Shown here in pieces: positions 18,486 to 37,446 of a stretch of DNA of 64,000 bases (its first letter is position 1; each line of letters begins with the position of its first letter). This DNA is from a virus. Position numbers and translations under genes: made by a program. Where the stretch lies: IMG/VR virus record IMGVR_UViG_3300035670_000019, positions 1-64,000 of that record, one strand, 5' to 3'. Below the pieces are notes generated by a model that saw only the letters and a list, made by a program, of their open reading frames with translations, was not told the DNA's origin and made no database searches.

Positions 18486-19118
18486 ATGAATAAAGAGTTC
18501 CTTAAAATGCAAAAATTGGCTGGTATTATTACTGAAAGTCAATATAAAGTATCACTAGATGAAATTGAAAACATATATGAATTAGATGATACAGAAAAAA
18601 ATGTAGTTGATGATGTAAAAGATGAAATGTCTGCTATATTAAAAACTTTAGATGCTGAGTTAAATAAAGCATCTAAATCCACTGATCAACCAACAAATGA
18701 AGGTTTATTAACTGCGGCTGGCTTTATTATAGCTCTTCCTGCTATAATGGGATTAATAGCTAAATTTGGAAAAGCAGCTGGTGCTTTAGTTAATAAGATG
18801 TTAGGTAAAAAACCTAATGAAGGTGATGCTTATAATCAATGGTTAACTAAATTAAGTCATATAGCTGATGAATTACATCATTTGTATTTAGTCCCAATTG
18901 AAGGAATTGTTAAAAAATTTGTTAAAGATCCTAAAAAAGCCCATAATATATCTAATGGAATTTTTCATATTATAGTAGCTGTTTTCTTAGTAGCTTCTGG
19001 AGTCACAGCTGTGAAAGCCTTCCAAGCCAAAAATATATCATTAACCACTTTAGAAAGTGCTTTAACTGCTGTCAAATCAGGAGAAATACAAGCGTTTTTA
19101 GAAAAATTATTCGCTTAA
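18486..19118 (+). CDS. Putative head cargo protein with hydrophobic helices
   Basis: MNKEFLKMQKLAGIITE tag; TNE|GLLTAAGFIIALPAIMGLIAKFG; GIFHIIVAVFLVASGV. Confidence 0.55.
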   Translation: MNKEFLKMQKLAGIITESQYKVSLDEIENIYELDDTEKNVVDDVKDEMSAILKTLDAELNKASKSTDQPTNEGLLTAAGFIIALPAIMGLIAKFGKAAGALVNKMLGKKPNEGDAYNQWLTKLSHIADELHHLYLVPIEGIVKKFVKDPKKAHNISNGIFHIIVAVFLVASGVTAVKAFQAKNISLTTLESALTAVKSGEIQAFLEKLFA

Positions 19119-19154
19119 AAATTATATTAATATTTATAAATAAACCCTAATAAA

Positions 19155-20189
19155 ATGCAAATAGAAAGATTACGTTCTCTTATTAAAGAATCAATTCAAG
19201 AATATATTAAAGAAATTGATGAAGCAGCTGAGACTGCCGCTATGGAAGCTCGCATCGCTAAATGTGATGAAGCTATTTTAGCCCGTGAAACTAGACTCGA
19301 AAACCTTAGAAACTTAGAAGAAGCAGCTGATATGCTGGATGAAGTTAAAGTTAAAGCTATGGAAAATGAGATTAAAGAGCTTAAAAAAGCTAAAGCTAAA
19401 TTTGAAAAAGATAAAGAAAAAAAAGCAGCTAAAAAAGCTGGTAAAGGTAAAAAAGAAGTAACTACTGATGCTAAAACTGAAGACACTCCTGTTGATGAGT
19501 CTGACGTAATGGAGAAAATGGAAATGGAAGGTGAAGAACCAAAAGAAAAAGCATTAAATGAGTCATTCCTTAAAATGCAAAAATTAGCAGGTGTTATTAC
19601 TGAGGCTCAATATAATCAGAAAAAAAAAGCCTTAACTGAAAACCAAATAACTAATAACCCTGAATTCAGTAAGATAGAAGATAAAGCTTACAGTTTTATT
19701 AATAGTCCTGAAGTAACTGCTTTACTCACTAAAGAACTAAATAAACTATCACCTGAAGAAAAAACAGAATTATCAAAAAATATTATGTCCGAAGGAGGAT
19801 CAGATAAATCTGATTTTAAATCAACTATAGAAAAAGCTATGAGTGCTATCTCTTTAAATGAAGATATGCATGATGCTATTAGAAAATTAGGTGGATACAA
19901 GCCAGGCCAAGAACCTACAGTTATGGATAAAGCCGCGGGTAAAGTTTTACAAGGTTTAGGAGTGAGTAATATCATGTCAATGGGAACATTACCTAGCCTA
20001 GTAGCTATGGCTATAGATAAAGGATTTGACATTAACCTTATGAAAATGGTTTCAGATATGCTTGGAAGTACACAAGCTGCTGTTGGAGCATCAGTCTTAG
20101 GTGGATTAATAGGAGGTGCGATATTATGGAAAATAGGCAAGATTCTACAAAACGAAAAAACAACTATGGGTACTGCGTTATTTAACTAA
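19155..20189 (+). CDS. Putative head cargo polyprotein carrying both tags and C-terminal hydrophobic helices
   Basis: MQIERLRSLIKESIQE; internal LNESFLKMQKLAGVITE; AAVGASVLGGLIGGAILWKIG; late promoter at 19130. Confidence 0.55.
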   Translation: MQIERLRSLIKESIQEYIKEIDEAAETAAMEARIAKCDEAILARETRLENLRNLEEAADMLDEVKVKAMENEIKELKKAKAKFEKDKEKKAAKKAGKGKKEVTTDAKTEDTPVDESDVMEKMEMEGEEPKEKALNESFLKMQKLAGVITEAQYNQKKKALTENQITNNPEFSKIEDKAYSFINSPEVTALLTKELNKLSPEEKTELSKNIMSEGGSDKSDFKSTIEKAMSAISLNEDMHDAIRKLGGYKPGQEPTVMDKAAGKVLQGLGVSNIMSMGTLPSLVAMAIDKGFDINLMKMVSDMLGSTQAAVGASVLGGLIGGAILWKIGKILQNEKTTMGTALFN

Positions 20190-20195
20190 CATATA

Positions 20196-20270
20196 GACCG
20201 ATTCATAGCCGGTCGCTTTAACTAAAAACTAAAATGGAGCTGTGGCCCAATCATTTGATTGGGCCTTCTC
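20196..20270 (+). ncRNA. Candidate structured RNA element (hairpin + pseudoknot + second hairpin)
   Basis: GACCG/CGGTC stem whose loop CATAGC is complementary to GCTGTG (20239-20244); GGCCCAATCA/TGATTGGGCC stem. GC-rich island in an AT-rich spacer. Confidence 0.35.
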
Positions 20271-20279
20271 TATGCTTAT

Positions 20280-20311
20280 TTTGGCCTTAATAAAAAGAAT
20301 TATTATATTAA
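20280..20311 (+). promoter_or_regulatory. Bacteroidota sigmaA-type promoter
   Basis: TTTG-N20-TATATTAA. Confidence 0.55.
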
Positions 20312-20315
20312 AAAT

Positions 20316-20789
20316 ATGAATATATTTTATATTAATTCTGATCCTATTATCGCCGCTAGAGAATTAGCTGATGATCATATTCGTAAAATGCAAATTGAAT
20401 CTGCTCAAATGTGTTGTACAGCACATTGGGAAACAGGTGGTACTGCTCCATATAAACGAGCTCATAAAAACCATCCTTCAACAATTTGGACAAGACAATC
20501 AATACAACATTATAGATGGTTAGTAAAACATGGATTAGAAATTTGTAATGAATTTGAAAAACGTTATGGTAAAACACATGCTACTAAACAAGTATTGTTA
20601 TGGTGTAAAGACAATGAACCAAATTTACCTAATAATGGATTTATAGATCCACCACAATGTATGCCTGATGAATTTAGAAAGGAAAACACTATAGAAGCAT
20701 ATAAGAATTTTTATATTAATGATAAAATAAAAGTTAAAAAATTAGATTGGAAAAAATTAAATAATAAACCTGAATGGATAAACAAATAG
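20316..20789 (+). CDS. Pyrimidine-dimer DNA glycosylase (DenV-like) family protein
   Basis: MNIFY...DP..AA....D.H..KM.IESAQM; YKRAHKNHPSTIW; EFEKRYGKTH; PPQCMPDE. Start corrected to 20316. Confidence 0.75.
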   Translation: MNIFYINSDPIIAARELADDHIRKMQIESAQMCCTAHWETGGTAPYKRAHKNHPSTIWTRQSIQHYRWLVKHGLEICNEFEKRYGKTHATKQVLLWCKDNEPNLPNNGFIDPPQCMPDEFRKENTIEAYKNFYINDKIKVKKLDWKKLNNKPEWINK

Positions 20790-22069
20790 TAATAGTTGGT
20801 GCAGGAGTAGCTGGTATAAACGCAGCTACTAAATTAGTTGATAATGGTTACCCTGGTAACTTAATCACTATTATAGACAAAGGTAATGATCCACATAACC
20901 GCTTACCTGAAGAAGTAATGACAGGTATGTTAGGCGCGGGAGGATGGAGTGATGGTAAATTAACATACCATACTGCAATTGGAGGTGTATTATCAAAATA
21001 CTGTGGTGAAGAGAAAGCAATGGAATTGATGGATCAAGTTATTAATAACTTTAGACGTTTTCACCCTAAACCAGAAGAAATCTTTTGCTCTGATCCACAA
21101 GCAGAACCTGAATTCATTAAACCATACTTTGGATTACGTTTATTCCCAGTATGGCATATTGGTTCAAATTACCTACATGAGATTGCTAAAACATGGTATC
21201 AGTATTTGCTAAACAAAGGTGTTAGATTTGAATGGAATACTGAGGTTAAAAATATATACTTTGATCGTAGTAGAATCTACACATCCAATGCCTATATGCA
21301 TTATGATGAACTTATATTTGCAGTAGGCAAATCAGGTATTGACTTTGCTCAAAAATTATCAGATGAGTATAAATTACCAACTGAACCAAAATCAGTACAA
21401 ATTGGAGTACGTTTTGAAGCACCACAAAAATACTTCCAAAAATTAATTGATATTAGCTATGATTTTAAACTATATCAAAAGTTTGATAATGTATCATTAA
21501 GATCATTCTGTACTAATAATAACGCAGCTTACGTCGCAGTAGAGGAAACATATGGTGATATTACTTATAATGGTCACGCTAAGAAAGGTGAGGAATTTAG
21601 AAATGATATGACCAATTTTGGTATTTTGATGGAAATCAAAGGTATTGATAATCCATTTGAATGGTCAAGAGATGTAGTAAATAAATTGCAAATTGATGGA
21701 AAAGGATTATATTACTCACCTAACCAAACCCGCAAACCAGGATTAACATCTGAGGGTGCTACAGTATCAGCTCATCAAGTAGATGATTATTCATTAGATG
21801 ATATTAGAAATGCAATGAGTGGTTATTTCTCATATATTGAAACATTTATTGAACAAATGAATGAAGTATTTCAATTTGGTGATGATTGGGGGATATATGT
21901 TCCTGAAGTAAAATATGTCTCCGCAGAGCCTCTTGTTAATTATAATAATCTAAGTCTCACAACATATAATAATATTTACTTTGCTGGAGACGCATTATCA
22001 GCTAGAGGTATAACAGTAGCAGGTAGTCAAGGTATTTACATTGCTGAAGGTATTTTAAAAAAAATGTAA
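20774..22069 (+). CDS. FAD-dependent oxidoreductase (COG2509-like)
   Basis: IVGAGVAG dinucleotide-binding motif, GAGGWSDGKL, IGVRFE, RSFCTN, YFAGDA..RGI. Confidence 0.85.
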   Translation: MDKQIVIVGAGVAGINAATKLVDNGYPGNLITIIDKGNDPHNRLPEEVMTGMLGAGGWSDGKLTYHTAIGGVLSKYCGEEKAMELMDQVINNFRRFHPKPEEIFCSDPQAEPEFIKPYFGLRLFPVWHIGSNYLHEIAKTWYQYLLNKGVRFEWNTEVKNIYFDRSRIYTSNAYMHYDELIFAVGKSGIDFAQKLSDEYKLPTEPKSVQIGVRFEAPQKYFQKLIDISYDFKLYQKFDNVSLRSFCTNNNAAYVAVEETYGDITYNGHAKKGEEFRNDMTNFGILMEIKGIDNPFEWSRDVVNKLQIDGKGLYYSPNQTRKPGLTSEGATVSAHQVDDYSLDDIRNAMSGYFSYIETFIEQMNEVFQFGDDWGIYVPEVKYVSAEPLVNYNNLSLTTYNNIYFAGDALSARGITVAGSQGIYIAEGILKKM

Positions 22070-23084
22070 GTATTTAATTTCTGGTGATATTTATAATTAT
22101 GAAATATTATGTATATCATTGGATTAGAAAAGATACTAATGAACCTTTTTATGTAGGAAAAGGAACAGGTAATAGAGCAGGTCATAAAAAATCAAATAAA
22201 GGGTGGAAAAATATTACTTCTAAAGTTGAATGCTTTTGGGAAATTATTAAGTATTTTGATGATGAACAAACCGCTTATCTGTATGAACATACTCTTATTG
22301 AAGAATATAAAAAATTGGGGTATAAGATAATTAATCAAACTGAATATTCTAAAGGAGGAGGTACTTGGGCATATACAGATGAAGTAAAACAACGTCAAAG
22401 TAAAAATAGAAAAGGTAAAGGTTTAGGGCCTCGAAGTGAAGAATGGAAGCAAAATATTAGTAAAGCAAACAAAGGTAGAAATATATTATGGGCTAATAAA
22501 ATAGGGGATGCCCTTAGAGGAAAACCTAAAAATTATTTAAGTCATCATAAACCAATACTACAATATGATCTTCAAAATAATCTACTTAATGAATACCAAT
22601 CAGCCCAAGAAGCAGGTAAACATCTAAATAAATCAGGCAATAGTATAGCGGACTGTGCCGCAGGTCGTCAAAAAACAGCTTACGGATTTATTTGGAAATA
22701 TAAAGAATAATTCATATATTTATACTAAAATATAACTATGAAAAAATCAGAATTACAACAAATTATTAAAGAAGAGATAAATAAATTTAGACTTAAACCT
22801 GGAGATCCGGGGTACACTGATAATGGTATAGCAAATAACTATGCATCTGATTTAACTAATCGTTTATTCTATCAAAAAAATTCCTCTCCTCTACAGTGCG
22901 TAACTAATTGGGGTAATGAATTAGAAAAAGATCCATTAATAGCTGGTAGACTTACTAAAAGTCAAATAGAAGATTTAAAAAAAGAAGCAATAGCTCTTGT
23001 AGGGATTACTAAAGGAACTAGTAGGTATAAACAAGTATTAAAAGATAAAATACTTAAAGTTTTAAAAGGTGAAAAAATAAGATA
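21947..23084 (+). mobile_element. Homing-endonuclease cassette supplying a replacement 3' end for the oxidoreductase gene
   Basis: The last 40 codons of the oxidoreductase recur in diverged form at 23085-23207; a GIY-YIG gene and one passenger gene lie between. The left boundary may be slightly further upstream. Confidence 0.7.
22099..22710 (+). CDS. GIY-YIG homing endonuclease with NUMOD3/NUMOD1-type DNA-binding repeats
   Basis: YYVY...PFYVGKG..NRA; E..LI...N; SEEWKQNISKANKG; KPILQYDLQNNLLNEYQSAQEA...KTAYGFIWKY. Start at 22099, after late promoter 22087. Confidence 0.85.
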   Translation: MKYYVYHWIRKDTNEPFYVGKGTGNRAGHKKSNKGWKNITSKVECFWEIIKYFDDEQTAYLYEHTLIEEYKKLGYKIINQTEYSKGGGTWAYTDEVKQRQSKNRKGKGLGPRSEEWKQNISKANKGRNILWANKIGDALRGKPKNYLSHHKPILQYDLQNNLLNEYQSAQEAGKHLNKSGNSIADCAAGRQKTAYGFIWKYKE

Positions 23085-23085
23085 A
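22738..23085 (+). CDS. Tagged head-cargo passenger gene within the endonuclease cassette
   Basis: MKKSELQQIIKEEINK tag; own late promoter at 22716. Confidence 0.55.
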   Translation: MKKSELQQIIKEEINKFRLKPGDPGYTDNGIANNYASDLTNRLFYQKNSSPLQCVTNWGNELEKDPLIAGRLTKSQIEDLKKEAIALVGITKGTSRYKQVLKDKILKVLKGEKIR

Positions 23086-23207
23086 ATTTGTCATTAAGTG
23101 AATTCCCAAATGTACACTTTGTAGGTGATGCTTTATCTGCTCGTGGTATTACAGTTAGTGGCGCTCAAGGAATATATGTTTCTGAATATTTATTGAAAAA
23201 TAAATAA
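23085..23207 (+). pseudogene. Displaced original 3' end of the FAD oxidoreductase gene
   Basis: Translates as NLSLSEFPNVHFVGDALSARGITVSGAQGIYVSEYLLKNK* versus the gene end NLSLTTYNNIYFAGDALSARGITVAGSQGIYIAEGILKKM*; no start codon. Confidence 0.85.
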
Positions 23208-23671
23208 TGAAATTATCACAACTAAAACAAATCATTAAAGAGGAAATACATAAAGTATTGAATGAAGCTTTTGTTAATGATAAAGGAGAACTTGAAGATT
23301 TTAATTTTGAAAATGATTTAGTAGTAAAATATTTACCTGAATATTATCAAAATGAAAAACGTTATAAATTTTTCTATTGTGAAAAAGGATTAGCAGATGA
23401 CTTTGATACTAAGGATGGTAAAAAAGTAAAATATATTGTAGGATATTCACATTTTTTAGATTTACCTAATGATAAAGAATGGATTTTAGATATGCCTGAC
23501 CCAAAAACTGAATTAAATATAGCTTCAGGTTTAGCACTTGACCCAGATAGTTGTTATGATGCAGAAATGGATGTGATAGGATATATATATTCTAAAAATG
23601 GAAAAGATATTGAAACAGAATATGAAGAAGAGGAATTATGGGAGGCTTTTTATGATTCATTAGGAGCTTAA
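23207..23671 (+). CDS. Tagged acidic head-cargo protein
   Basis: MKLSQLKQIIKEEIHKVLNE tag; late promoter at 23186. Confidence 0.55.
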   Translation: MKLSQLKQIIKEEIHKVLNEAFVNDKGELEDFNFENDLVVKYLPEYYQNEKRYKFFYCEKGLADDFDTKDGKKVKYIVGYSHFLDLPNDKEWILDMPDPKTELNIASGLALDPDSCYDAEMDVIGYIYSKNGKDIETEYEEEELWEAFYDSLGA

Positions 23672-23707
23672 AATTTGATAAGTTTATACATAACCTTTAA
23701 TGTTTAG

Positions 23708-23741
23708 GGCTTGGCTTTGCCAAGCCTTTTTGCTATATTCA
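23708..23741 (+). promoter_or_regulatory. Overlapping intrinsic terminator and sigmaA-type promoter
   Basis: GGCTTGGC-ttt-GCCAAGCC-TTTTT; CTTG-N20-TATATTCA. Confidence 0.6.
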
Positions 23742-23761
23742 CTATATAAATAAAAAACATA

Positions 23762-24946
23762 ATGAATATACACGAGGACTTATCAAAAATTGGCAAGCAG
23801 TTAATGCTTAGTGAACCATTCTATGGTGTATTCTTATCTACTCTTAATAAAGTAGTTAGAAAAGATGTACCAACAGCTGGTGTTTGTTTACAAGGTATTA
23901 ATTATCAATTAGCAGTTAATGAAGAGTTTTGGAACTCACTACCAGGAGATAAACCAAAAATAGGACTACTCAAACATGAGTTGCTCCATATTTGCTTTAA
24001 TCATCTTCTTGATAGAGATGACTACCCAGATCAAGAATTACATAATGTAGCAGCTGATATTGAAATCAATCAATATATAGCTGAGGAGTATTATCCATCT
24101 AAAGATCTTCTATTACCAAGTTCATATCCTGAACTGAATTTGCCTTTAAAAGCTGGTACTAAAGTATATTATGGTTTGTTAAAACAAGCTTTAGAAAGTG
24201 GAGCTAGTCCAAAACTACAACAATTAATGGATGGTTTAAAAGGTGAAGGTCTACATCCAACTTGGAGTGAGTTTGATGGTTTAAGTGAAGCTGATGCTAA
24301 ACTAGCCAAATCACAACTTGAACATCAAATTAAAGAAATACTTAAAAGTCAATCAGATAAGGGTAGAGGTTTTGTTCCATCTGAGTTAGAAAGTTTTATA
24401 GATGATATATTAGCTGAAAGTGAACCATCATATGATTGGAGATCGTATTTTAGAAAATTTGCAGGTACATCAACTCGAGTCTATACTAAAAAAACAAGAC
24501 GTAAACTAAACAAACGTTTCCAAGAAAATCCAGCCTTAAAAATTAAAACTAAAAAGAATATACTTGTAGGCATTGATACATCAGGTTCAGTTCTTAATGA
24601 AGATTTAGCTAGATTTTTTGCTGAGATACATCATATGTACAAAACTGGAGTAACAATCACTGTAGCTGAAGGTGACGCTGCTATTCATAATGTATGGGAA
24701 TATAAAGGCGAGATGCCTAATTCTGTTACAGGTAGAGGCGGTACAAACATGAATCCGTTTATCCATTATTTTAATGAACATAAAGAATATAATAGTTTAA
24801 TTATATTAACTGATGGATTCATAGGTGAAAATAAAATTAAATCATTCAAACCAACTTTAATGGTCATAACACCGAATGGTGAAAGTTTAGATGTAATTAA
24901 AGAAAACGGATGGGGCAACACTATTAAAATGAATTTGGCCTCCTAA
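23762..24946 (+). CDS. Metallopeptidase-vWA protein (DUF2201-like)
   Basis: LLKHELLH, NVAADIEINQ; vWA MIDAS IDTSGS, GRGGT, ILTDG. Confidence 0.85.
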   Translation: MNIHEDLSKIGKQLMLSEPFYGVFLSTLNKVVRKDVPTAGVCLQGINYQLAVNEEFWNSLPGDKPKIGLLKHELLHICFNHLLDRDDYPDQELHNVAADIEINQYIAEEYYPSKDLLLPSSYPELNLPLKAGTKVYYGLLKQALESGASPKLQQLMDGLKGEGLHPTWSEFDGLSEADAKLAKSQLEHQIKEILKSQSDKGRGFVPSELESFIDDILAESEPSYDWRSYFRKFAGTSTRVYTKKTRRKLNKRFQENPALKIKTKKNILVGIDTSGSVLNEDLARFFAEIHHMYKTGVTITVAEGDAAIHNVWEYKGEMPNSVTGRGGTNMNPFIHYFNEHKEYNSLIILTDGFIGENKIKSFKPTLMVITPNGESLDVIKENGWGNTIKMNLAS

Positions 24947-24965
24947 TAAATCATTGTTATATTTA
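24934..24965 (+). promoter_or_regulatory. Bacteroidota sigmaA-type promoter
   Basis: TTTG-N20-TATATTTA. Confidence 0.6.
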
Positions 24966-24984
24966 ATTAAAATAAAGGTTACAA

Positions 24985-26181
24985 ATGGCAAAAAAAGAAA
25001 AAACAAAACATGCACAAGTGTCTCTAAATGTTAAAGAGGCAAAACAATTTCTTAAACATATTATTGATAACAATCGTTATCTACAACAACAAAACAAACC
25101 ACCTGTAGCAGTTGAAGTAATTGGTGATTCCGGTATTGGTAAAACATCAACTATTGTTCAATTAGCAAATGAGTTGGATTTGAATTTTGTTAAGTTGAAT
25201 CTCGCACAAATTGAGGAGTTAGGTGACCTAGTAGGTTTCCCAATTCGTCAATTTGAAGTATGCCAAGACAATGATAAATGTCTGTGGATAGATGAACATG
25301 CAGTTGATGAGTATACCAAACAAGGATTTAAATTTACAGGTAAAAATAGAATGAGTTATTGTCCACCTGAATGGATTAGTGGCAAATCAAATGGTGGTAT
25401 TTTGCTTTTAGATGACTGGAATCGCGCTGACATCAGGTTCATTCAAGCTGTTATGGAGCTAATTGATCGCCAACAATATATTAGTTGGGAGTTGCCTAAA
25501 GATTGGCATATTATTCTTACAAGTAATCCTGACAATGGTGATTATTTAGTTAATAGTATTGATAACGCTCAAAAAACACGATTTATATCTATTAATTTGA
25601 AATTTGATATTAATTGTTGGAGTGAGTGGGCTGAGAATGCTGAAATGGATAATAGGTGTATTAACTTCTTACTAAAACATCCTGAACTAGTATCAACAAA
25701 TACTAACTCAAGAAGCATATCAACATTCTTTAATTCAATATCATCACTAAAATCATTTGATGATGAGTTAGGATTGATTCAAATGATTGGTGAGGGTAGT
25801 GTTGGATCTGAATTCACTACAATGTTCACAATGTTTATTAATAATAAACTAGATAAGATTATATCCCCAGATACTATTATGAATCATGAAAGTGAAGAAT
25901 ATATTCTTAATACTTTAAAGGGTATTATTGGTAAAGACGATAAATATAGAGCAGATTTAGCATCAATTCTATCAACTCGTATTGTTAACTATAGTTTATT
26001 TTATAGTAAAAGCAATAAGATAGAAAAATCATATATTGATCGTTTGGCTTATTTGATGAATGAAGATATATTTGCTGTAGATTTGAAATACAAAATTGTA
26101 AAATCAATTTATAATGGCAATTCAAGCTCATTCAAAACACTAATGATGAATAAAACATTAATTAAATTCCTAAGTAAATAA
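24985..26181 (+). CDS. MoxR-like AAA+ ATPase
   Basis: Walker A GDSGIGKT, DLVGFP, Walker B ILLLDDWNRA, TSNP, DNAQKTRF. Confidence 0.85.
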   Translation: MAKKEKTKHAQVSLNVKEAKQFLKHIIDNNRYLQQQNKPPVAVEVIGDSGIGKTSTIVQLANELDLNFVKLNLAQIEELGDLVGFPIRQFEVCQDNDKCLWIDEHAVDEYTKQGFKFTGKNRMSYCPPEWISGKSNGGILLLDDWNRADIRFIQAVMELIDRQQYISWELPKDWHIILTSNPDNGDYLVNSIDNAQKTRFISINLKFDINCWSEWAENAEMDNRCINFLLKHPELVSTNTNSRSISTFFNSISSLKSFDDELGLIQMIGEGSVGSEFTTMFTMFINNKLDKIISPDTIMNHESEEYILNTLKGIIGKDDKYRADLASILSTRIVNYSLFYSKSNKIEKSYIDRLAYLMNEDIFAVDLKYKIVKSIYNGNSSSFKTLMMNKTLIKFLSK

Positions 26182-26183
26182 TT

Positions 26184-27290
26184 ATGTATATAGCACAACT
26201 AATATTTGACCCAGGTCGTAATAAACAATTTCATACTAATGGTTGGGAAAAAGTAGCAGGCATTATACCTGAATCATATAAGCAACGGTATTTAGCTTTA
26301 TATGAGGCTAATAAAGATAATAAAATTGAAAATAAAACAACAGTTTATTCAACACCATTATCTGAGTTACCTTCATATAAATTAAAAAACTACATAACAG
26401 AGAATAAACTAAATATTAAAACAGCTAGAAAATTTGATAAATTAGATGCTGTTATTATTAGTGATTTATTTATTAGAGAAAACTATACAGATCTTAAACA
26501 ATATAATTGGGATCAAACAACTAAACAATCATATTTTACCCCCAAACCATCAGAAAATCTATATATAATCCCAGTTGACTTTATTATAGATAATCCTAAA
26601 TTTTCAAAATATAGAAACCAAACAACTCAGTATGGTTATAGTAATGATATAGTTAAAGATCGTAAAGGTGAAGCATACACCCACTATGTTATTACTGAAA
26701 AAAATCTAAATGATTGGATTCAATTTGATCCTAATTTTGAGATTATTAAAAAACACTCACCTTTGCCTGGTTTTATAATTACTAGTCATCATGGTAATAC
26801 TAAGGCATGTAAAAACATTAATTTTTTCTTAAACTTAATTGACAATATTGAAAAATATAACTTAAAAGTTATTTTTGATACATCAGTCAATAATGATATT
26901 AATCAAGGTGTTGTAGTTGATTTTGATATGTATCAAACTCTTTATAATATGCTTAATAGTTCTGATGTTGAGAATTGGGAAATGGCTAGAGAAATAACAG
27001 CTAACTGCGAGTATGATACATCAAAACCATATCTGATGCATCTATATTGTAGTTTTAGTCAATTAAGAAAAGCAAATGGTTCTGCTAACTATCAATTCCT
27101 AAAAAAGAAACTAGATAAAGAAGTTAATATGGGGAGTTATGGTAGATATGGTGGTCCGTCATTCACTGCTATAACAAAGCATTTAGTTACTAAATTCCCA
27201 GCTTATAATCAAGTATTTTTAGATTGCTTTAAATATCAAGTTAATACATTTATTGGTAAAGATGTAATTAAAGAAATAACATCCTACTAA
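26184..27290 (+). CDS. Hypothetical protein, third gene of the vWA/MoxR cluster
   Basis: Intact 368 aa ORF coupled to the ATPase. Confidence 0.55.
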   Translation: MYIAQLIFDPGRNKQFHTNGWEKVAGIIPESYKQRYLALYEANKDNKIENKTTVYSTPLSELPSYKLKNYITENKLNIKTARKFDKLDAVIISDLFIRENYTDLKQYNWDQTTKQSYFTPKPSENLYIIPVDFIIDNPKFSKYRNQTTQYGYSNDIVKDRKGEAYTHYVITEKNLNDWIQFDPNFEIIKKHSPLPGFIITSHHGNTKACKNINFFLNLIDNIEKYNLKVIFDTSVNNDINQGVVVDFDMYQTLYNMLNSSDVENWEMAREITANCEYDTSKPYLMHLYCSFSQLRKANGSANYQFLKKKLDKEVNMGSYGRYGGPSFTAITKHLVTKFPAYNQVFLDCFKYQVNTFIGKDVIKEITSY

Positions 27291-27311
27291 TATTTATACC
27301 AAATAATATTA

Positions 27312-28332: not shown

Positions 28333-28387
28333 TTTTTTTTTTGATATTTATATTAAAACATACTAATTTAAAAAATAATAAAAGACA

Positions 28388-28828
28388 ATGAACAAAGAGT
28401 TCCTCAAAATGCAAAAATTGGCTGGTTTGATCACTGAAAACCAGATTAAACAAGTAAATGAAAATCAAAGTGATTTTGATACTATTGAAAAAATTATCTC
28501 TCAAACTCCTTACCCTGTTACAGATCTTGAATCATTATATGATGAAATGGAAAATACAGATTTAGTAGACTCAGTAGCGGATGCTATGGGTGGAGATTTT
28601 ACTAAGGCTCGTAAAGCTTTAGAAGCTTATGGAAATAGTAAATTTGGAAATCAAATGTCTGGTGGATCTTTAAACCAAGAAATATATATGGATTTTTTAA
28701 ATGAATTATTTAATGTTCTTGGTAATAAAGCTAACTCATATGATGATAGTACTTGGACTAATCAAGAGAAAGAGTTAGTAAAAAATATCTATAATGCTAT
28801 AGAAAGAGCAGGGATTGAAATTGCTTAA
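28388..28828 (+). CDS. Tagged head-cargo protein
   Basis: MNKEFLKMQKLAGLITE tag, VNE|; late promoter at 28344. Confidence 0.55.
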   Translation: MNKEFLKMQKLAGLITENQIKQVNENQSDFDTIEKIISQTPYPVTDLESLYDEMENTDLVDSVADAMGGDFTKARKALEAYGNSKFGNQMSGGSLNQEIYMDFLNELFNVLGNKANSYDDSTWTNQEKELVKNIYNAIERAGIEIA

Positions 28829-28839
28829 AAATAAAATTA

Positions 28840-29118: not shown

Positions 29119-29141
29119 TTCTTAAAATAAAATTTCAAATT

Positions 29142-29176
29142 AGGCTTGCACTTGCAAGCCTTTTTTATTATATTAT
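29142..29176 (+). promoter_or_regulatory. Overlapping intrinsic terminator and sigmaA-type promoter
   Basis: AGGCTTGCA-ct-TGCAAGCCT-TTTTT; CTTG-N20-TATATTAT. Confidence 0.6.
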
Positions 29177-29190
29177 AAATAAAACAATAT

Positions 29191-29721: not shown

Positions 29722-29754
29722 TATATTTATATACTAGAACCTAATTGGTTTTTT

Positions 29755-31326
29755 ATGAGTCAAGACTTAAAACAAATAATACGAGACGAATACTTAAAAT
29801 GTGCTCAAGACCCAGCACACTTTATGAAAAAGTATTGCCACATTCAGCATCCAACTCGTGGTAGAATTATATTTAATTTATACCCATTTCAAGAAAAAGT
29901 ACTACGTTTATGGAGAGATCATCCATATGATATAGTACTTAAGTCTCGACAATTAGGTATATCAACTTTAGTAGCAGGTTATTCATTATGGTTAATGACC
30001 TTCCAAAAAGACAAAAACGTTCTTTGTATAGCTACTAAACAAGAGACAGCTAAAAACATGGTGACAAAAGTCAAATTCATGTTTGAAAATTTACCATCTT
30101 GGTTAAAGATACCTGCTGAAGAAAATAATAAATTAACGTTACGATTAAATAACGGTTCTCAAATTAAAGCAGTTTCAGCGGCAGGTGACGCAGGTCGATC
30201 AGAAGCAGTGTCACTTCTAATTATAGATGAGGCTGCTTTTATTGAAGGTATAGCTGAGATATGGGCATCTGCTCAACAAACCTTAGCAACTGGTGGTGGA
30301 GCAATTGTGTTATCTACTCCATATGGTACTGGTAATTGGTTCCATCAAACATGGGTTAGAGCTGAAGCTCAACAAAATGACTTCTTACCTATTAAACTCC
30401 CATGGTATGTTCATCCTGAGCGTGATGAAAATTGGAGAAAAAAACAAGATGAATTACTAGGAGACCCACGACTAGCAGCACAAGAATGCGACTGTGACTT
30501 TAATACTTCAGGTGATACTGTGTTTTATAGTGAACAACTAGACTTTATTTTTGCTACCTCTGTTAAAGATCCTTTAGAAAAGCGTGGTATAGATCGTAAT
30601 TTATGGATATGGGAACTACCAGATTATACACGAAGTTATATGGTTGTTGCTGACGTAGCTCGTGGAGATGGTAAAGACTTTTCAACATTTCATGTTATAG
30701 ATACTGAATTAAATACACAAGTTGCTGAATATAAAAGCCAAATATCACCAAAAGAATTTGGTTATTTACTAGTGAGTATTGCAACAGAATATAATGATGC
30801 GTTGTTAGTTGTTGAAAATGCTAACATAGGATGGTCAACTCTTGATGCAATTATTGAAAGAGGATACAGAAATTTATATTATTCTCCAAAAAGTGAGGCG
30901 TTAAATGCGGAAACTTACTTAGAAAGAACAGATGATCCATCAAGAATGACACCAGGTTTTACAATGTCTATGAGAACTCGTCCGTTAGTTGTAAATAAAT
31001 TTAGAGAATACGTTGGAGATAAAAGTGTTACCATACAATCTAAGCGTCTTCTTGAAGAAATGAAAGTGTTTATATGGAGAAATGGTAGACCTGAAGCACA
31101 ATCTGGTTATAATGATGACTTAGTTATGAGTTTTGCTATTGGAATGTATGTTCGTGACACTGCTTTAAAATACAAAACACAAGGTTTAGATCTAACACGT
31201 GCTGCTTTGAGTAATATGGCAACTGTTAGACCAAATCCTCAAGGTAACTACACTATGAATGGTGTTCCTAACCCGTATCAAATGAATATAGGTGGGCAAG
31301 ATGAAGATATAAGGTGGTTACTGTAA
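29755..31326 (+). CDS. terL: Terminase large subunit
   Basis: LYPFQ, KSRQLGIST, LLIIDEAAF, STPYG, nuclease ADVARG, VENAN, DDLVMS. Confidence 0.95.
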   Translation: MSQDLKQIIRDEYLKCAQDPAHFMKKYCHIQHPTRGRIIFNLYPFQEKVLRLWRDHPYDIVLKSRQLGISTLVAGYSLWLMTFQKDKNVLCIATKQETAKNMVTKVKFMFENLPSWLKIPAEENNKLTLRLNNGSQIKAVSAAGDAGRSEAVSLLIIDEAAFIEGIAEIWASAQQTLATGGGAIVLSTPYGTGNWFHQTWVRAEAQQNDFLPIKLPWYVHPERDENWRKKQDELLGDPRLAAQECDCDFNTSGDTVFYSEQLDFIFATSVKDPLEKRGIDRNLWIWELPDYTRSYMVVADVARGDGKDFSTFHVIDTELNTQVAEYKSQISPKEFGYLLVSIATEYNDALLVVENANIGWSTLDAIIERGYRNLYYSPKSEALNAETYLERTDDPSRMTPGFTMSMRTRPLVVNKFREYVGDKSVTIQSKRLLEEMKVFIWRNGRPEAQSGYNDDLVMSFAIGMYVRDTALKYKTQGLDLTRAALSNMATVRPNPQGNYTMNGVPNPYQMNIGGQDEDIRWLL

Positions 31327-31352
31327 TATTTATAATATATAATTCAATTTAA

Positions 31353-33242
31353 ATGGCTGATACAAGTGTTTTTTCAAGATTAAGGAAATTATTCTCAACA
31401 GATGTAATAATTCGTAATGCTGGTGGTAATCAGCTCAAAGTAATGGATGTAAATAGCATCCAAGCAACAGGTGAATTCCAAACTAATGCTTTAGTAGATA
31501 GATTCAATCGTATCTATTCTAGTAACAGCACATCACTTTTTGGAGCACAATTAAACCTCAACTGGAGATATTTACGCACCCAAGTATACTCAGATTATGA
31601 TGCAATGGATACAGATGCTATTGTAGCTTCTGCTCTTGATATTATAGCTGACGAATGTACTCTTAAAAATGATATGGGTGAAGTACTTCAAATTAAAAGT
31701 TCAAATGAGGATACACAAAAAATTCTATATAATTTATTTTATGATGTATTAAATATTGAATTTAATTTATGGTCTTGGATTCGTCAGATGTGTAAGTATG
31801 GTGATTTCTTTTTAAAATTGGAGATTGCGGAAAAATTTGGGGTTTATAACATTATTCCATACACCGCTTACCATATTATGAGAGAAGAACATTACGATCC
31901 TAAAAACCCAGCTGAAGTAAGATATAGATTCAGCCCAGATGGTTTCTCAGGTGGTGCTACAGGTTTTTATGGTGTGACAGGACAAGGCACTTATAGTACT
32001 AATAAAAATGACACATCAATTTATTTTGATAATTATGAAATGGCTCACTTCAGATTAATTACTGATGTGAATTATTTGCCTTATGGTCGTTCATATCTTG
32101 AACCAGCTCGTAAGTTGTTTAAACAATATGTTTTGATGGAAGATGCAATGTTGATCCATCGTATTGTTCGTGCCCCAGAAAAAAGAATTTTTTATGTTAA
32201 TGTAGGTTCTATTCCACCTAATGAGGTAGAAAACTTTATGCAAAAGACTATCTCACAGATGAAAAGAACTCCATATGTTGATCCACAAACTGGTGAGTAT
32301 AATTTAAAATATAATTTACAAAACTCATTAGAAGACTTTTTTATACCTGTTAGAGGTAATGATACAACTACTCGAATTGAGCCTACTAAAGGTTTAGACT
32401 ACACAGCAATTGAGGACGTAACTTACTTAAGAGATAAGTTATTTGCCGCTTTAAAAGTACCTAAAGCGTTTATGGGATATGAAAAAGACTTAACTGGTAA
32501 AGCTACTTTAGCAGCAGAAGATATTCGTTTTGCTCGTACAATTGATCGCATTCAACGTATTATACTCTCAGAATTAAATAAAATTGCTTTGGTTCACTTG
32601 TATACTCAAGGATATAGAAACGAACAATTGACTAATTTTGAACTATCATTAACTACTCCTTCTATCATCTATGACCAAGAAAGAATTGCGTTAATGAAAG
32701 AAAAAGTAGATTTAGCTAAAAACATTATTGATGGTAAATTATTACCTACAGATTGGATTTACGACAATGTATTCCACTTAAGCCAGGATCAATATGATGA
32801 GTATAGAGACTTAATCGCTGAAGATCAAAAGCGTATCTTTAGGTTTAAACAAATTGAAAATGAAGGTAACGACCCACTTGAATCAGGTAAGTCATATGGT
32901 ACACCTCACGATTTAGCCGCATTATATGGTGCTGGTAGAAATGGAATGGGTGTTCCTGATGGTTATGATAAAGATGAACCTCTAGGAAGACCTAAAGAAA
33001 AAGCATCTATTGCTGGTACACAACAAAGTACTTTAGGTAAAGATAGATTAGGTAATATTGGTATGAAGAAAGGAGATGCTACAGGTGAAGATGGATCTTT
33101 AAAAAATAATTTTAAAGGTGGGTCACCACTTGCTTTAGAGACTAAAGATAAAAACAAAACTTTATTAGAATCTTTAGATAAAAAATTATCCCTTAAAAAA
33201 GAAGAATCTTCATTATTAGATGAATCTCAAATACGAGAATAA
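31353..33242 (+). CDS. gp20: Portal protein (T4 gp20-like)
   Basis: LMEDAMLIHRIVRAPEKRIFYVNVG, EDFFIPVRG, YLRDKLFAALKVP, EDIRFARTI. Confidence 0.92.
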   Translation: MADTSVFSRLRKLFSTDVIIRNAGGNQLKVMDVNSIQATGEFQTNALVDRFNRIYSSNSTSLFGAQLNLNWRYLRTQVYSDYDAMDTDAIVASALDIIADECTLKNDMGEVLQIKSSNEDTQKILYNLFYDVLNIEFNLWSWIRQMCKYGDFFLKLEIAEKFGVYNIIPYTAYHIMREEHYDPKNPAEVRYRFSPDGFSGGATGFYGVTGQGTYSTNKNDTSIYFDNYEMAHFRLITDVNYLPYGRSYLEPARKLFKQYVLMEDAMLIHRIVRAPEKRIFYVNVGSIPPNEVENFMQKTISQMKRTPYVDPQTGEYNLKYNLQNSLEDFFIPVRGNDTTTRIEPTKGLDYTAIEDVTYLRDKLFAALKVPKAFMGYEKDLTGKATLAAEDIRFARTIDRIQRIILSELNKIALVHLYTQGYRNEQLTNFELSLTTPSIIYDQERIALMKEKVDLAKNIIDGKLLPTDWIYDNVFHLSQDQYDEYRDLIAEDQKRIFRFKQIENEGNDPLESGKSYGTPHDLAALYGAGRNGMGVPDGYDKDEPLGRPKEKASIAGTQQSTLGKDRLGNIGMKKGDATGEDGSLKNNFKGGSPLALETKDKNKTLLESLDKKLSLKKEESSLLDESQIRE

Positions 33243-33282
33243 TATCTCCATATATATTTATAACTAAAATATTACTCCTGGA

Positions 33283-34137
33283 ATGACTATAAAACATTCA
33301 AAGTATAAAAATACTGGTATCCTCTTTGAACTCTTAGTAAGACAAATTACAGCTGACACTTTATCAGGTGTTGAATCACAGGCTGTTAATATTCTTAAAA
33401 AATATTTTACTAAAACTGAATTAGGAAGAGAGTATAAATTATACGAGAGCTTTTTTAAGCATACTAACACTAGCGAAGCTAAAGCTGATATGGTTATTAG
33501 TACTCTTATAGAAAGTTCTAAGCAATTAAATCGTTCTGTTTTAAGAAGACAAAAATATAATCTAATTAAAGAAATTAAAAATCACTATGATTTAGAAGAA
33601 TTCTTTAAAACTAAGTTACCAAACTATAAAGCACAAGCTGCTTTGTTTACACTTTTAGAGGTTTACAACAGTGAAAATCTGTCTAACCCTGACCAGATTA
33701 TAGAAAATAAAACAGTTTTATTAGAATATCTTGTTAAGTCTCCTATTAATAAAAAAGAAGTTAGAGAAAATATCTTAGAAGAATTCAAAAACCAAGATAA
33801 AGATATTCGTGTGTTAGCATACAGAGTACTATTAGAAAAATTTAATGATAAGTATGCTGATTTAAATCCAAATCAGAAAGCCACATTAAAAGAATTTATT
33901 AATAGTGTTGATAACGCTCCTAAATTAAGAGAATTTTACAACACTAAAATAAACGAAATCAAAAATACTTTATTAACTCTAAACAAAAAAGTTACCAATA
34001 AAGCTATCCAGATAAAAGTAAATGAGGTTGTAAACATTTTACCAAGTCTAGGTAAAACAGATAAAGTTAATGATGATCATTTAATTAATCTCCTTCAGCA
34101 TTATCAGTTAGTTGAAGAACTAGAAACGGTAGAATGA
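33283..34137 (+). CDS. Head morphogenesis-associated helical protein
   Basis: Lies between portal and protease; late promoter at 33254. Confidence 0.55.
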   Translation: MTIKHSKYKNTGILFELLVRQITADTLSGVESQAVNILKKYFTKTELGREYKLYESFFKHTNTSEAKADMVISTLIESSKQLNRSVLRRQKYNLIKEIKNHYDLEEFFKTKLPNYKAQAALFTLLEVYNSENLSNPDQIIENKTVLLEYLVKSPINKKEVRENILEEFKNQDKDIRVLAYRVLLEKFNDKYADLNPNQKATLKEFINSVDNAPKLREFYNTKINEIKNTLLTLNKKVTNKAIQIKVNEVVNILPSLGKTDKVNDDHLINLLQHYQLVEELETVE

Positions 34138-34634
34138 GTGCTAAAGAAAAAATAAAAGAATTTGTACAGAAGCGATTAAAAGAAATAAGCGCTACAGGTA
34201 CTGGTGCTTCTACTATTCCTGGTGAAGGTATAGGTGTATCTACTAAACTTGCTTTTAATCCAAATAAAAAAGCTAAAGGTACCGCTCATAATTACTACTA
34301 CAAACTTGGTTTTAAACCTGTGAACCAAAAAGCTTTAAATAAAGCAGCTAAAGGTATTGAAGTAAAACACTTATGGGAAGAAGAAGAACCCAAATTTGAT
34401 ATTGAAGGTTTTGTTAATAGTTTAGGAGTTGATGAAGAAACAAAACAATATATAGCAGGACGATTAGGAGATTTTGATCTAATAGCAGATAAGCTAAAAG
34501 AACTTATCAAACTAATCCAGGAAGCTAAAAAAGAAACAATAAATAGCTATAGAGAAACACCAGAAAAGAAATCAGTATATGGTACTGATTTAGCTATTTC
34601 AATACTTGATAGAGCAATAAAATTATTTACATAA
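34134..34634 (+). CDS. Putative prohead core/internal protein
   Basis: MSAKEKIKEFVQKRLKE| leader; head operon position. Confidence 0.5.
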   Translation: MSAKEKIKEFVQKRLKEISATGTGASTIPGEGIGVSTKLAFNPNKKAKGTAHNYYYKLGFKPVNQKALNKAAKGIEVKHLWEEEEPKFDIEGFVNSLGVDEETKQYIAGRLGDFDLIADKLKELIKLIQEAKKETINSYRETPEKKSVYGTDLAISILDRAIKLFT

Positions 34635-34636
34635 AC

Positions 34637-35452
34637 ATGAAAACACTTCAAACACAATATAACCTTATTAAAGAAGGTAAAGGCGATAAAGCATACTTTA
34701 TGAAACTTGCTCGCTACAACTTCCCAGACCTTATTACTCCTGTATTATCATATAATGATACTATTACTGTATTAAAAAATAAAAGTATCTTATCTGAAGG
34801 TATTGGTGGTGTAGTAACTAAAGGTAAAACACCTGATTGGCATTCTATCTTTAAAGAAAATATTACTGAAGCTACTAAAGAAGCTAAAGCTGAAGAAAAA
34901 GAAACTACTAAAGAAGTAACTGACATGGCAACACGTGGTTATGACTATAAGGATGAAAAAAATTATGATAATGTATTTGGTCAAGAATTCTTAAAAGGAT
35001 TCTATACTGAAATGCAAGATCCTAAAAATGAAGATAAAACAGTAGAAGAATTAAGAGCAATTGTAGCTAAAAACTTAGCTAAAGACTGTAATTACTATGT
35101 TAAAGATGGCCAATTTGGTATTAAAGGTGTGGGTTATACTGTTGATGCTCCCGGTTTAGGAGAACCAAAACCTGCTAAAGGTAAGCATAAATCTTCAGGT
35201 TATGGTGATTTACAAGAATCAGTATTACGTTCTCAAATTTATTTGTTAGCTAAAGAAATGTTATTTGAAGAAGATAAAAAAGATTCTAAAGAAAATAAAA
35301 AATCTGAATCAAAAATAATTGATGCTTTAAGAAAAGAATATAAATTTGATTTAAAAGGTGTAGAGAATGATAAAAATTGGGACAAATTATCTACCAAATC
35401 AAAATTAAAAGTTAAAGATTATATACGATTTGATATGAATCAAGAGCATTAA
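34637..35452 (+). CDS. Putative prohead core/internal protein
   Basis: Several IKE/LSE/ITE/LQE sites; internal LQESVLRSQIYLLAKE. Confidence 0.5.
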   Translation: MKTLQTQYNLIKEGKGDKAYFMKLARYNFPDLITPVLSYNDTITVLKNKSILSEGIGGVVTKGKTPDWHSIFKENITEATKEAKAEEKETTKEVTDMATRGYDYKDEKNYDNVFGQEFLKGFYTEMQDPKNEDKTVEELRAIVAKNLAKDCNYYVKDGQFGIKGVGYTVDAPGLGEPKPAKGKHKSSGYGDLQESVLRSQIYLLAKEMLFEEDKKDSKENKKSESKIIDALRKEYKFDLKGVENDKNWDKLSTKSKLKVKDYIRFDMNQEH

Positions 35453-35454
35453 TT

Positions 35455-36066
35455 ATGAAACAAATACTTATTGAAACCCAAACATTCTCTGCCAAACCAG
35501 TCAAATTAATTGAAGGTAAAGGTAGTAATAACAATATATTAGTTCAAGGTATATTAGCAACAGCCGAAGTAAAAAACGGTAATGGTCGCTATTATTCAAG
35601 AGATTTATGGGAAAGAGAAATTAATAAGTATATGGAGAGTGTTAATGCCAATAGAGCATTAGGCGAACTAGATCATCCTGATTCTTCTATTATTAATTTA
35701 AAAAATGTATCCCATAATATTAAAAAAATATGGTGGGATGGAGATAATGTGATGGGAGCAATAGAAATTCTACCTACCCCTTCAGGCAATATATTATCTG
35801 CTTTATTTCAAAACAATATTCCAGTAGGTGTATCATCACGTGGTATGGGTTCATTAAAACAAATGGGTGAACTAATGGAAGTACAAGATGATTTTGAATT
35901 ATTATGTTGGGATTTTGTCTCAACCCCATCAAACCCAGGTTCATATATGAAAGAAAAAGGCATGATGAATGAATCTAAAACACCTCAACAATATAACCAA
36001 TATGCTAAAGTAAATTCTATTATCACAGACATACTTTGTGCTAATGGAACTTGCCCAATATTTTAA
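35455..36066 (+). CDS. gp21: Prohead core protease (T4 gp21-like)
   Basis: KNGNGRYYS, ALGELDHP, VSH, GVSSRGMGS, DFVSTPS. Confidence 0.93.
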   Translation: MKQILIETQTFSAKPVKLIEGKGSNNNILVQGILATAEVKNGNGRYYSRDLWEREINKYMESVNANRALGELDHPDSSIINLKNVSHNIKKIWWDGDNVMGAIEILPTPSGNILSALFQNNIPVGVSSRGMGSLKQMGELMEVQDDFELLCWDFVSTPSNPGSYMKEKGMMNESKTPQQYNQYAKVNSIITDILCANGTCPIF

Positions 36067-36094
36067 CCCCTCTTAAAATAGCATTTTAAGATTG

Positions 36095-36124
36095 ATGCCT
36101 CACAAAAGTGAGGCATTTCTTTTT
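36095..36124 (+). terminator. Intrinsic terminator
   Basis: ATGCCTCAC-aaaa-GTGAGGCAT-TTCTTTTT. Confidence 0.75.
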
Positions 36125-36264
36125 CCCAAAATGTAATTTTTAATAGATCCATATATATGTATATTCAAATATGCTACCCTTTCCCCTTATGTAGCATTAA
36201 TTAGTTAATAAATCTATTACGTTTCCTATTAAACGTATTTCCAAAACAAATTTATTTGAGGACA

Positions 36265-37446
36265 ATGAACAGAGAAATGCTAAAAGAATGCATTGCTGAT
36301 GCTAAAACTATTAGAGAAACAGCAATTGCAAGCGCAAAAGTAGCTCTTGAAGAAGCATTCACTCCCCAACTCACTGCTATGTTTGCTGAAAGGTTAAATG
36401 AGCTTGAATTAGAGGAAGCTGAAACTGAAAAAGAGCCAACTGATGAAATGTACAGTAATGAAGAAAAGAAAGAAGAAAATCTTGAAGAAGATTTTAATCT
36501 TGAAGAACTTCTTGCTGAGTTATCAATGGAAGAAGAACAAGAACCTACAATGGAAGGTGAAGACACGGAAGATGAGCCATTAGAAGAAAATCTAATGCTT
36601 GAAGACATGTCTGACGAAGAAATTGAAGAACTTGTTATGCAAGTCATTGATGACATGATCGCATCTGGTAAGCTTATGCCTGGTGAAGGCGAAGAAGAAG
36701 ACATGGAAGACATGGAAGACATGGGTGATGAAGAAGAAGTAGAAGATGAAGAAATCGATATTGATGAAATTTTATCTGAAGCTGATTCTGAAGAAGTTAA
36801 AGAAGAAATGGTAAATGAAGGAGCAGCAATGGAGCTTTTTCAAGCTATTTTAGATCAATTTAGCTCCGCTAAAGAATTCTTCCAAGGGTTATATGATATA
36901 ATACAACAAGGAGGAGATCCAGAAGTATACATGATGGAAAAAGGACAAAACCCTACAGTTTTAGCTGGCATTGGCTCAGCTTTAGGATTTGGGGTTTTAT
37001 TAGCTAAAGTATTTGGAAAATCTGCTGTTGATAAATTAAAAGCATTTTATCAAAAATATGGTAAAGGAGCTAAATCAACAACTGAAGCTACAAATGAAGA
37101 AATGGAAGAAACTATCAATGAGCTTCGCAAAGAACTCAACGAAGTTAATCTATTAAACGCTAAGCTTCTTTACACCAACAAAATCTTCAAAGCTAAGAAT
37201 CTTACCGAATCAGAAAAAATCAAGGTTTTAAACACGTTTGACAAAGCAGAAACTGTTAAGGAAGTTAAACTCGTATTCGAAACTTTAACTGAATCTTTTA
37301 AAGCTACTACAGCTAAAAAGAATCCAATTAAAGAATCATTAGGATCAGCTTCTAAAACAATTTCAACTGCTACCCCTAAACAACCAATTATTGAGGTTAA
37401 TAGCGCTTTTGCTCGTATGCAGCAACTTGCTGGCCTCAGAAAGTAA
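36265..37446 (+). CDS. Prohead scaffolding protein
   Basis: Very acidic coiled-coil protein between protease and capsid; many [LIV]xE sites; ends FARMQQLAGLRK. Start likely the ATG at 36265. Confidence 0.8.
   Translation: MNREMLKECIADAKTIRETAIASAKVALEEAFTPQLTAMFAERLNELELEEAETEKEPTDEMYSNEEKKEENLEEDFNLEELLAELSMEEEQEPTMEGEDTEDEPLEENLMLEDMSDEEIEELVMQVIDDMIASGKLMPGEGEEEDMEDMEDMGDEEEVEDEEIDIDEILSEADSEEVKEEMVNEGAAMELFQAILDQFSSAKEFFQGLYDIIQQGGDPEVYMMEKGQNPTVLAGIGSALGFGVLLAKVFGKSAVDKLKAFYQKYGKGAKSTTEATNEEMEETINELRKELNEVNLLNAKLLYTNKIFKAKNLTESEKIKVLNTFDKAETVKEVKLVFETLTESFKATTAKKNPIKESLGSASKTISTATPKQPIIEVNSAFARMQQLAGLRK

Follow-up and report, generated by a model that had tools for sequence, protein, structure and literature searches.

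A conserved scaffold C-terminal peptide recurs as a candidate prohead-addressing leader on unrelated proteins of T4-like phages

We analysed the first 64 kb (hereafter the window) of the 163,030-bp virus record IMGVR_UViG_3300035670_000019, which has 32% G+C and derives from a T4-like phage akin to Flavobacterium phage immuto. A short peptide motif, F-x-[RK]-M-Q-x-L-A-G, closes the scaffold protein of this phage and recurs as a tag on other proteins of the same genome. We propose, with a probability of about 0.7, that it marks a shared, protease-released prohead-addressing peptide, which is the terminal anchor of the scaffold, has been copied onto cargo proteins and is severed from both by a gp21-type protease. 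We favour this reading because the conservation of the scaffold tail, the unrelatedness of the carriers, the flanking [ILV]-x-E sites, the presence of an S77 protease and a promoter-like motif common to head and tagged genes all fit it.

Four copies of the motif lie in the window and a fifth lies elsewhere in the genome, in the gene at 95320 (Table 1). A six-frame scan for [RK]-M-Q-x-L-A-G returned exactly four sites in the window, all within plus-strand open reading frames (ORFs) and all where an earlier reading of the DNA, made from its letters without database searches (the sequence-only reading), had placed them, that is, at the start of genes 18486 and 28388, inside 19155 and at the scaffold C-terminus. 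A degenerate DNA pattern of the core gave three matches in the window against none in 100 shuffles, the scaffold copy being absent from the three because its codons differ. The triplet I-T-E directly follows the motif in all three non-scaffold copies of the window. As that reading had also noticed, the tags of 18486 and 28388 are near-identical in DNA before the genes diverge: 46 of 51 nt agree within the tag and then only 12 of 30. The three N-terminal copies of the genome likewise share 46-48 of 51 nt and drop to background level beyond the tag.

The tagged proteins are otherwise unrelated. The body of the 18486 protein contains two hydrophobic helix-like segments and belongs to no known family, and the 19155 protein consists of a charged, helical, scaffold-like N-terminal part, the tag and a 194-residue body with Gly-rich hydrophobic segments. 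The body of 28388 represents a small family that is also tagged in three viral contigs. Searches of Pfam and PHROGs with the scaffold and the three cargo proteins of the window gave no matches, and a search of the ESM Atlas with the cargo returned only clusters of viral hypothetical proteins. A degenerate tag-like stretch, W-E-K-V-A-G-I-I-P-E-S-Y-K, begins 20 residues into another protein of no known family (26244-26285, in the 368-residue ORF 26184-27290); it has neither the upstream F nor the R/K and may be a decayed tag or a product of chance.

We assign the ORF directly upstream of the capsid gene as the scaffold because it occupies the gene-22 position, encodes an acidic and helical protein with an N-terminus like that of T4 gp22, and carries a C-terminal domain of a very large family. 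Translation most likely starts at the ATG at 36265 rather than the TTG at 36256, since the database protein has 393 residues. The C-terminal domain family comes from aquatic and other metagenomes and numbers 3139 clusters at 50% identity (E<=1e-3), or more than 7900 at 90%. Among the best 148 of the 3139 representatives at 50%, 125 scaffolds end in R-[MWF]-Q-[KQ]-L-A-G plus one to six residues (mostly one to three), and most of the others come close, with F or N substituted for G. We also retrieved 80 viral contigs via the capsid protein; 77 of them have an ORF upstream of the capsid gene, and in all 77 this gene, directly 5' of the gp23-like gene, ends in the motif. The sequence-only reading had named a scaffold C-terminus that is not conserved as one possible refutation and had proposed a survey of relatives; what the relatives display instead is a tail conserved across the whole family.

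The tail can be followed, in increasingly divergent forms, through immuto, Microcystis phage Mel-JY01, Rhodothermus phage RM378 and an uncultured 484-kb phage, whose capsid proteins are 56%, 50%, 35% and 47% identical to that of the window, respectively, the first three being the closest cultured relatives. In RM378, p142, the product of the gene upstream of the capsid gene, ends in R-I-K-R-L-A-G-L. The scaffold of the 484-kb phage ends in R-M-Q-K-L-A-D-I-S, and a nearby ORF opens with an R-F-Q-E-L-A-G-V-L-S-E leader. Even very remote relatives thus have the system. Comparison with the T4 record revealed no such tail on T4 gp22.

The tail is accompanied by a conserved I-[VILM]-E, a protease site of T4 type, 11 residues ahead of the invariant R, its E being present in 111 of the 125 scaffolds. 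An AlphaFold2 (AF2) model of the last 112 residues of the scaffold, computed from a 69-row alignment, contains a confident three-helix domain, a 31-residue linker of low confidence and a short terminal helix over the motif. The predicted domain spans residues 286-351 (37111-37308), is highly conserved and is followed by the flexible linker, and the terminal helix spans residues 383-391 (fragment residues 99-107), with residues counted here from the TTG at 36256. A Foldseek search of this model against PDB found only generic three-helix bundles, none at E<=0.001, and thus no significant match to a solved scaffold domain. As modelled, the scaffold C-terminus has the architecture of a tethered docking peptide.

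The tag is widespread on other proteins. The collection of viral contigs contains, among the matches listed, more than 118 stretches that fit a DNA pattern of the tag core plus I-T-E. In 92 of the 114 distinct copies listed the tag is N-terminal, the motif Met coming 6-14 residues after the start Met; the other 21 are internal, and eight of their ORFs stop within 25 residues past the site. The 84 distinct mature bodies among the copies listed fall into 57 BLASTP clusters, that is, at least 57 unrelated bodies, and 50 of 56 cluster representatives match no Pfam family, the remaining six matching scattered weak families. All five long contigs examined (102-159 kb, two of them complete) carry a motif-ended scaffold and two to four tagged ORFs each.

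Tags and scaffold tails agree beyond the core as well, at three positions that the tag search pattern had left free. N stands at -10 in 76 of 109 tags and 82 of 125 scaffold tails and F at -7 in 95 of 109 and 68 of 125, and position -5 is R or K in 78 of 109 tags and R in all 125 tails. Divergent tags retain [ILV]-x-E at the same spacing. Conservation of the tags continues beyond this site up to a second L-N-E, which recalls the redundant sites known in phiKZ-type propeptides (PMC9026906). The peptide is C-terminal in two non-scaffold proteins, ORFs of 85 and 412 residues from two contigs, where it comes after an I-E-E or L-N-E site; judging from these copies, it would thus work at either end of a protein, with the cut always on the side of the body.

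The sequence-only reading had proposed that the tag is shuffled as a DNA cassette, and modular reuse is indeed evident: besides the at least 57 bodies, one contig has three consecutive tagged small genes (86-1150), and one ORF in another (about 67.9-68.1 kb) bears two tags in tandem, as though a 19155-like protein had been fused in frame to a tagged cargo gene. The tandem-tag ORF and the three-gene array are direct signs of modular rearrangement at the tag. The argument from DNA identity holds up less well. Tags within a genome have a synonymous codon identity of 0.68, against 0.59 for tags from different contigs, so that the DNA identity mostly reflects amino-acid conservation and AT-rich codon bias; the value is 0.73 in this genome and 0.86-0.92 in tandem arrays. 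Movement as a DNA cassette thus has modest support.

The machinery expected to act on the peptide is encoded in the window. Its head module has the same gene order as the T4 record, and the S77 protease, the gp22-position scaffold and the gp23 shell are all present; three ORFs between the portal and protease genes have no assignment, and the plus strand carries nearly every gene. The protease, whose H and S sequence contexts match those of T4 gp21, is the enzyme expected to cut the [ILV]-x-E sites. We further observed the sequence ATAT[TG]TATA 44 times on the plus strand of the genome and five times on the minus strand, with an ORF start 10-60 nt downstream in 32 cases. Copies lie ahead of the terminase gene, the portal gene and further large structural genes and likewise ahead of the tagged genes 19155, 28388 and 95320, and the sequence is likely a late promoter because head and structural genes share it with tagged ones. 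This association with structural genes makes late expression of the tagged genes likely.

We propose the following mechanism. A peptide of about 16 residues, N-x-x-F-x-[RK]-M-Q-K-L-A-G-[ILV]-I, would act as the prohead-addressing, or docking, element. In the scaffold it would form the extreme C-terminus, a short amphipathic helix on a flexible tether of about 30 residues; in cargo it would be carried N-terminally, less often internally or C-terminally, by small, fast-evolving, unrelated proteins whose genes would be expressed, like the head genes, from late-type promoters. During prohead assembly, a tagged protein would take the site usually held by a scaffold tail and so become enclosed. The activated S77 protease would then cut at the [ILV]-x-E beside the peptide, after it in cargo and before it in the scaffold, which would free mature cargo within the head and detach the scaffold body from its anchor. 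Given this placement of the sites, both peptides would be clipped off as about 16-mers. The sequence-only reading had held that cargo mimics the capsid-binding peptide of the scaffold to dock on the inner shell and is freed at I-T-E; the shared peptide and the flanking sites stand, and the inner shell is a candidate receptor.

Since leader and conserved scaffold terminus are the same peptide, the binding partner of the scaffold tail would be the cargo receptor. We tentatively place it, at somewhat less than even odds, on the inner face of the capsid protein or its N-terminal propeptide region. An inner-shell receptor is plausible because scaffold C-termini bind coat in other systems and because about 60 N-terminal residues of the capsid protein, a putative propeptide, are strikingly conserved up to an invariant E60. 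A prediction of the complex between the capsid protein (69-row alignment) and the last 112 scaffold residues, run without controls, scored 0.00 and speaks neither for nor against binding. Mutual information between the scaffold residue at -4 (M, W or F) and capsid columns in 69 paired sequences picked out only variable columns and was uninformative. Between close relatives, L-A-G switches to L-A-F with no evident change in the capsid protein.

Several points weigh against the proposal of a shared addressing peptide. We infer packaging, cleavage and a common receptor from sequence. Mel-JY01 has the scaffold tail, a search with the K-L-A-G pattern detected no tag there, and the tail therefore has a role independent of cargo. 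Within a genome, scaffold and tag residues are only loosely coupled: in immuto, whose gp083 is a tagged protein, position -4 is W in the scaffold and M in the tag. Such loose co-variation is tolerable for a hydrophobic pocket but lends no positive support. Finally, part of the tagged set, the 19155 family for instance, may belong to the core as minor components and not be cargo for delivery.

The most serious rival concerns the receptor. The peptide could bind the scaffolding core, for example the three-helix domain of neighbouring scaffolds, so that it would be the polymerisation peptide of the scaffold and cargo would join as a chain-end mimic. We consider this possible though rather less probable than not, and a core component nearly as likely a receptor as the shell. 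It has to be taken seriously because T4 leaders are described as conferring affinity for the core (PMC9026906, PMC5694885). The three-helix domain shortly before the tether is highly conserved, and the second leader class described below appears to resemble an internal scaffold helix, which suggests scaffold-scaffold contacts. Against it, the studied scaffolds of P22, phi29, herpesvirus and 80alpha are established to bind coat by their extreme C-terminus, and the unusual conservation at the N-terminus of the capsid protein is what is expected of the partner of a conserved peptide. Rather unlikely is a separate alternative, in which the tagged proteins assist the core or its assembly and, as happens to the scaffold, are degraded and expelled, their peptide being descended from fragments of the scaffold gene. 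In the 19155 family, a scaffold-like, helical and acidic N-terminal part does end in the tag, and the eight internally tagged ORFs that stop shortly past the site, each in its own contig, would also fit; moreover, there is weak similarity (BLASTP E=0.012) between part of the 19155 body and a non-acidic, Gly-rich hydrophobic segment in the middle region of the scaffold (36820-37098). The bodies are mostly small, diverse, fast-evolving and unrelated to the scaffold, however, which is the pattern of T4 internal proteins, and the single clean site directly after the tag suggests that an intact body is released.

Two further explanations do without docking. The motif might be a recognition element (exosite) that marks proteins for cleavage by the prohead protease, as [ILV]-x-E adjoins every copy and scaffold and cargo are both expected substrates. 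We think this improbable: the motif is N-terminal of the cut in cargo and C-terminal of it in scaffolds, which is awkward for a single geometry, the propeptide site of the capsid protein has no such motif, and T4 gp21 requires little besides its short site (PMC9026906). Least probable of all, to the point of being hardly credible, is that the likeness resides in the nucleic acid, for instance as a translation-initiation or RNA element at gene 5' ends, or that amphipathic helices converged by chance. The DNA agreement of the three N-terminal copies would favour such a feature, but the scaffold copy lies at a 3' end with different codons, internal and C-terminal copies exist, and across contigs the amino acids are kept while synonymous codons match at only 59%. 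We ruled out the tag as an RNA or DNA element on the ground that codons vary between copies while the amino acids stay.

The closest known counterpart is the capsid targeting sequence (CTS) of the T4 internal proteins IPI, IPII and IPIII, reportedly described by Mullaney and Black in 1996. The CTS is reviewed in PMC9026906 and PMC9958956: internal proteins are directed into the core by N-terminal leaders, 10-19 residues long, which gp21 removes (PMC9026906, PMC5694885). Such leaders may be a general route by which T4-like phages load varied proteins (PMC9026906; PMC5694885; PMC3012670), and the T4 internal proteins are injected effectors (PMC3012670). In the T4 record, ipII and ipIII share a 10-residue leader that is identical at 32 of 32 nt, ends in I-A-E and is followed by divergence. 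As in T4, a short N-terminal leader is common, at the protein and DNA level, to unrelated small proteins and ends at an I-x-E site of gp21 type (the cut itself being predicted here), the genes are scattered outside the head module, some beside a denV-like gene, and the cargo repertoire is diverse and fast-evolving. Unlike in T4, the leader is longer (at least 17 residues), has a conserved extension past the cut, can also be internal or C-terminal and matches the conserved C-terminal peptide of the phage's own scaffold, which T4 gp22 lacks. The T4 ipII and ipIII leaders do not resemble the motif in sequence. The system described here thus appears to work like the CTS and, from sequence comparison, is not its homologue. 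We also considered a parallel between the T4 leader and the N-terminus of T4 gp22 and dropped it, since their likeness is limited to the I-A-E-A cleavage context.

Scaffold proteins with C-terminal coat-binding elements include P22 gp8, phi29 gp7 and herpesvirus UL26.5, and other proteins mimic such elements: 80alpha gp46 has its counterpart in SaPI1 CpmB, and further cases are the herpesvirus protease UL26, the lambda pair C/Nu3 and the C-terminal tail of the HK97 protease. By analogy, a short terminal peptide or helix on the scaffold would mediate incorporation here too, with other proteins entering the procapsid by carrying the same element. Our system shares with P22, phi29, herpesvirus and 80alpha the extreme C-terminal position, the conservation and, in the AF2 model, the tethered short helix; capsid binding is putative here. 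In those cases one or two dedicated proteins act as mimics, usually obtaining the tail via nested or paralogous genes, whereas here dozens of unrelated proteins bear the peptide at their N-terminus, the end opposite to that in the scaffold, and its removal by proteolysis is predicted. The cargo-loading peptides of encapsulins, which send arbitrary cargo inside an HK97-fold shell by a short terminal peptide, offer an analogy only: they are C-terminal, uncleaved and unrelated in sequence, and they act without scaffold or protease. In phiKZ and SPN3US, ejection and inner-body proteins bear N-terminal propeptides that a gp21-related protease cuts after glutamate, and paralogues share identical N-terminal stretches, as the tags do here; unlike the tags, these propeptides mostly exceed 100 residues, are cut at A/S-x-E sites and are not reported to match any scaffold terminus (PMC5694885, PMC10052503).

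A second leader class, M-K-K-S-E-L-x-Q-I-I-[KR]-E-E-I ... L-N-E, occurs on otherwise unrelated small ORFs in the window and elsewhere in the genome. By eye, the segment D-L-K-D-L-I-R-D-I-V of the immuto scaffold resembles it, and the window scaffold does so less. It is an even call whether cargo leaders in this large clade are literal copies of scaffold assembly peptides, the C-terminal tail having given rise to the tag and an internal scaffold helix possibly to the second class, with loading of any protein by competition for the scaffold site and release by the protease that dismantles the scaffold.

Some neighbouring genes are recorded here in their own right. A denV-like pyrimidine-dimer glycosylase gene (20259-20789) lies directly downstream of the tagged genes 18486 and 19155, and T4 ipIII-ipII likewise adjoin denV (T4 64939-66415); this adjacency could be ancient synteny of an internal-protein locus or a coincidence. 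Directly upstream of the fifth tagged gene are phage GroES-like and GroEL-like genes (genome 93072-95024). A NUMOD-domain homing endonuclease gene (22084-22710) adjoins an oxidoreductase gene, and at 23762-26181 a DUF2201 metallopeptidase/VWA protein is paired with a MoxR-like AAA ATPase.

Table 1. Positions of the motif copies, head genes and related elements (window coordinates unless stated otherwise)
Feature	Position	Strand	Details
Tagged cargo gene 1	18486-19118	+	210 aa; tag residues 1-17 (18486-18536), ending I-T-E
Tagged gene 2	19155-20189	+	344 aa; internal tag residues 135-150 (19557-19604), ending I-T-E
Tagged cargo gene 3	28388-28828	+	146 aa; tag residues 1-17 (28388-28438)
Fifth copy, tagged gene	95320-95592 (genome)		90-aa ORF, N-terminal tag, beside GroES/GroEL-like genes
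Large terminase	29755-31326
Portal, gp20-type	31353-33242		Portal_T4, E=1.1e-68
Prohead protease	35455-36066	+	Peptidase_S77 (T4 gp21 family), E=1.8e-29
Scaffold (core) protein, gene-22 position	36265-37446	+	Acidic helical body, N-terminus like T4 gp22
Scaffold tail with site	37387-37443	+	I-I-E site (37387-37395), then 16-residue terminal peptide with the shared motif
Motif copy in scaffold tail	37399-37443	+	Last 15 residues of the ORF ending at 37446, directly upstream of the capsid gene
Major capsid protein, gp23 family	37485-39155	+	Gp23, E=2.6e-72
ATAT[TG]TATA, examples	19130, 28344, 29723, 31326, 33254		19130 before 19155; 28344 before 28388
Second leader class	1648, 22738, 23207; 90966, 91615, 150926 (genome)		Also at the N-terminus of 19155

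The concept of a capsid-targeting leader is already known, as are single cases of proteins that borrow a terminal element of a scaffold. In the literature searched, we found neither a conserved scaffold C-terminal peptide that a huge phage clade employs as a cleavable leader for dozens of unrelated proteins nor the six-letter core of the motif, and the titles and abstracts of the immuto literature contain nothing on head assembly. On how T4-like phages select proteins for encapsidation, a 2023 review of T4 notes that the mechanisms by which proteins are brought to the scaffolding core "remain mysterious" (PMC9958956); a leader that equals the scaffold terminus makes this question testable. The tag also marks a large and almost wholly uncharacterised set of candidate injected proteins, with at least 57 unrelated families in a small sample, and can serve as a search handle for more. 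By analogy with T4, these proteins are likely anti-defence or host-takeover effectors. The peptide would, in addition, be a compact natural tag for packaging proteins in phage capsids. If cargo leaders are indeed copies of scaffold assembly peptides, the action of T4-type capsid-targeting leaders would be explained for the first time at the level of sequence, and there would be a defined peptide-receptor pair to seek and a cultivable system, immuto on Flavobacterium, in which to seek it.

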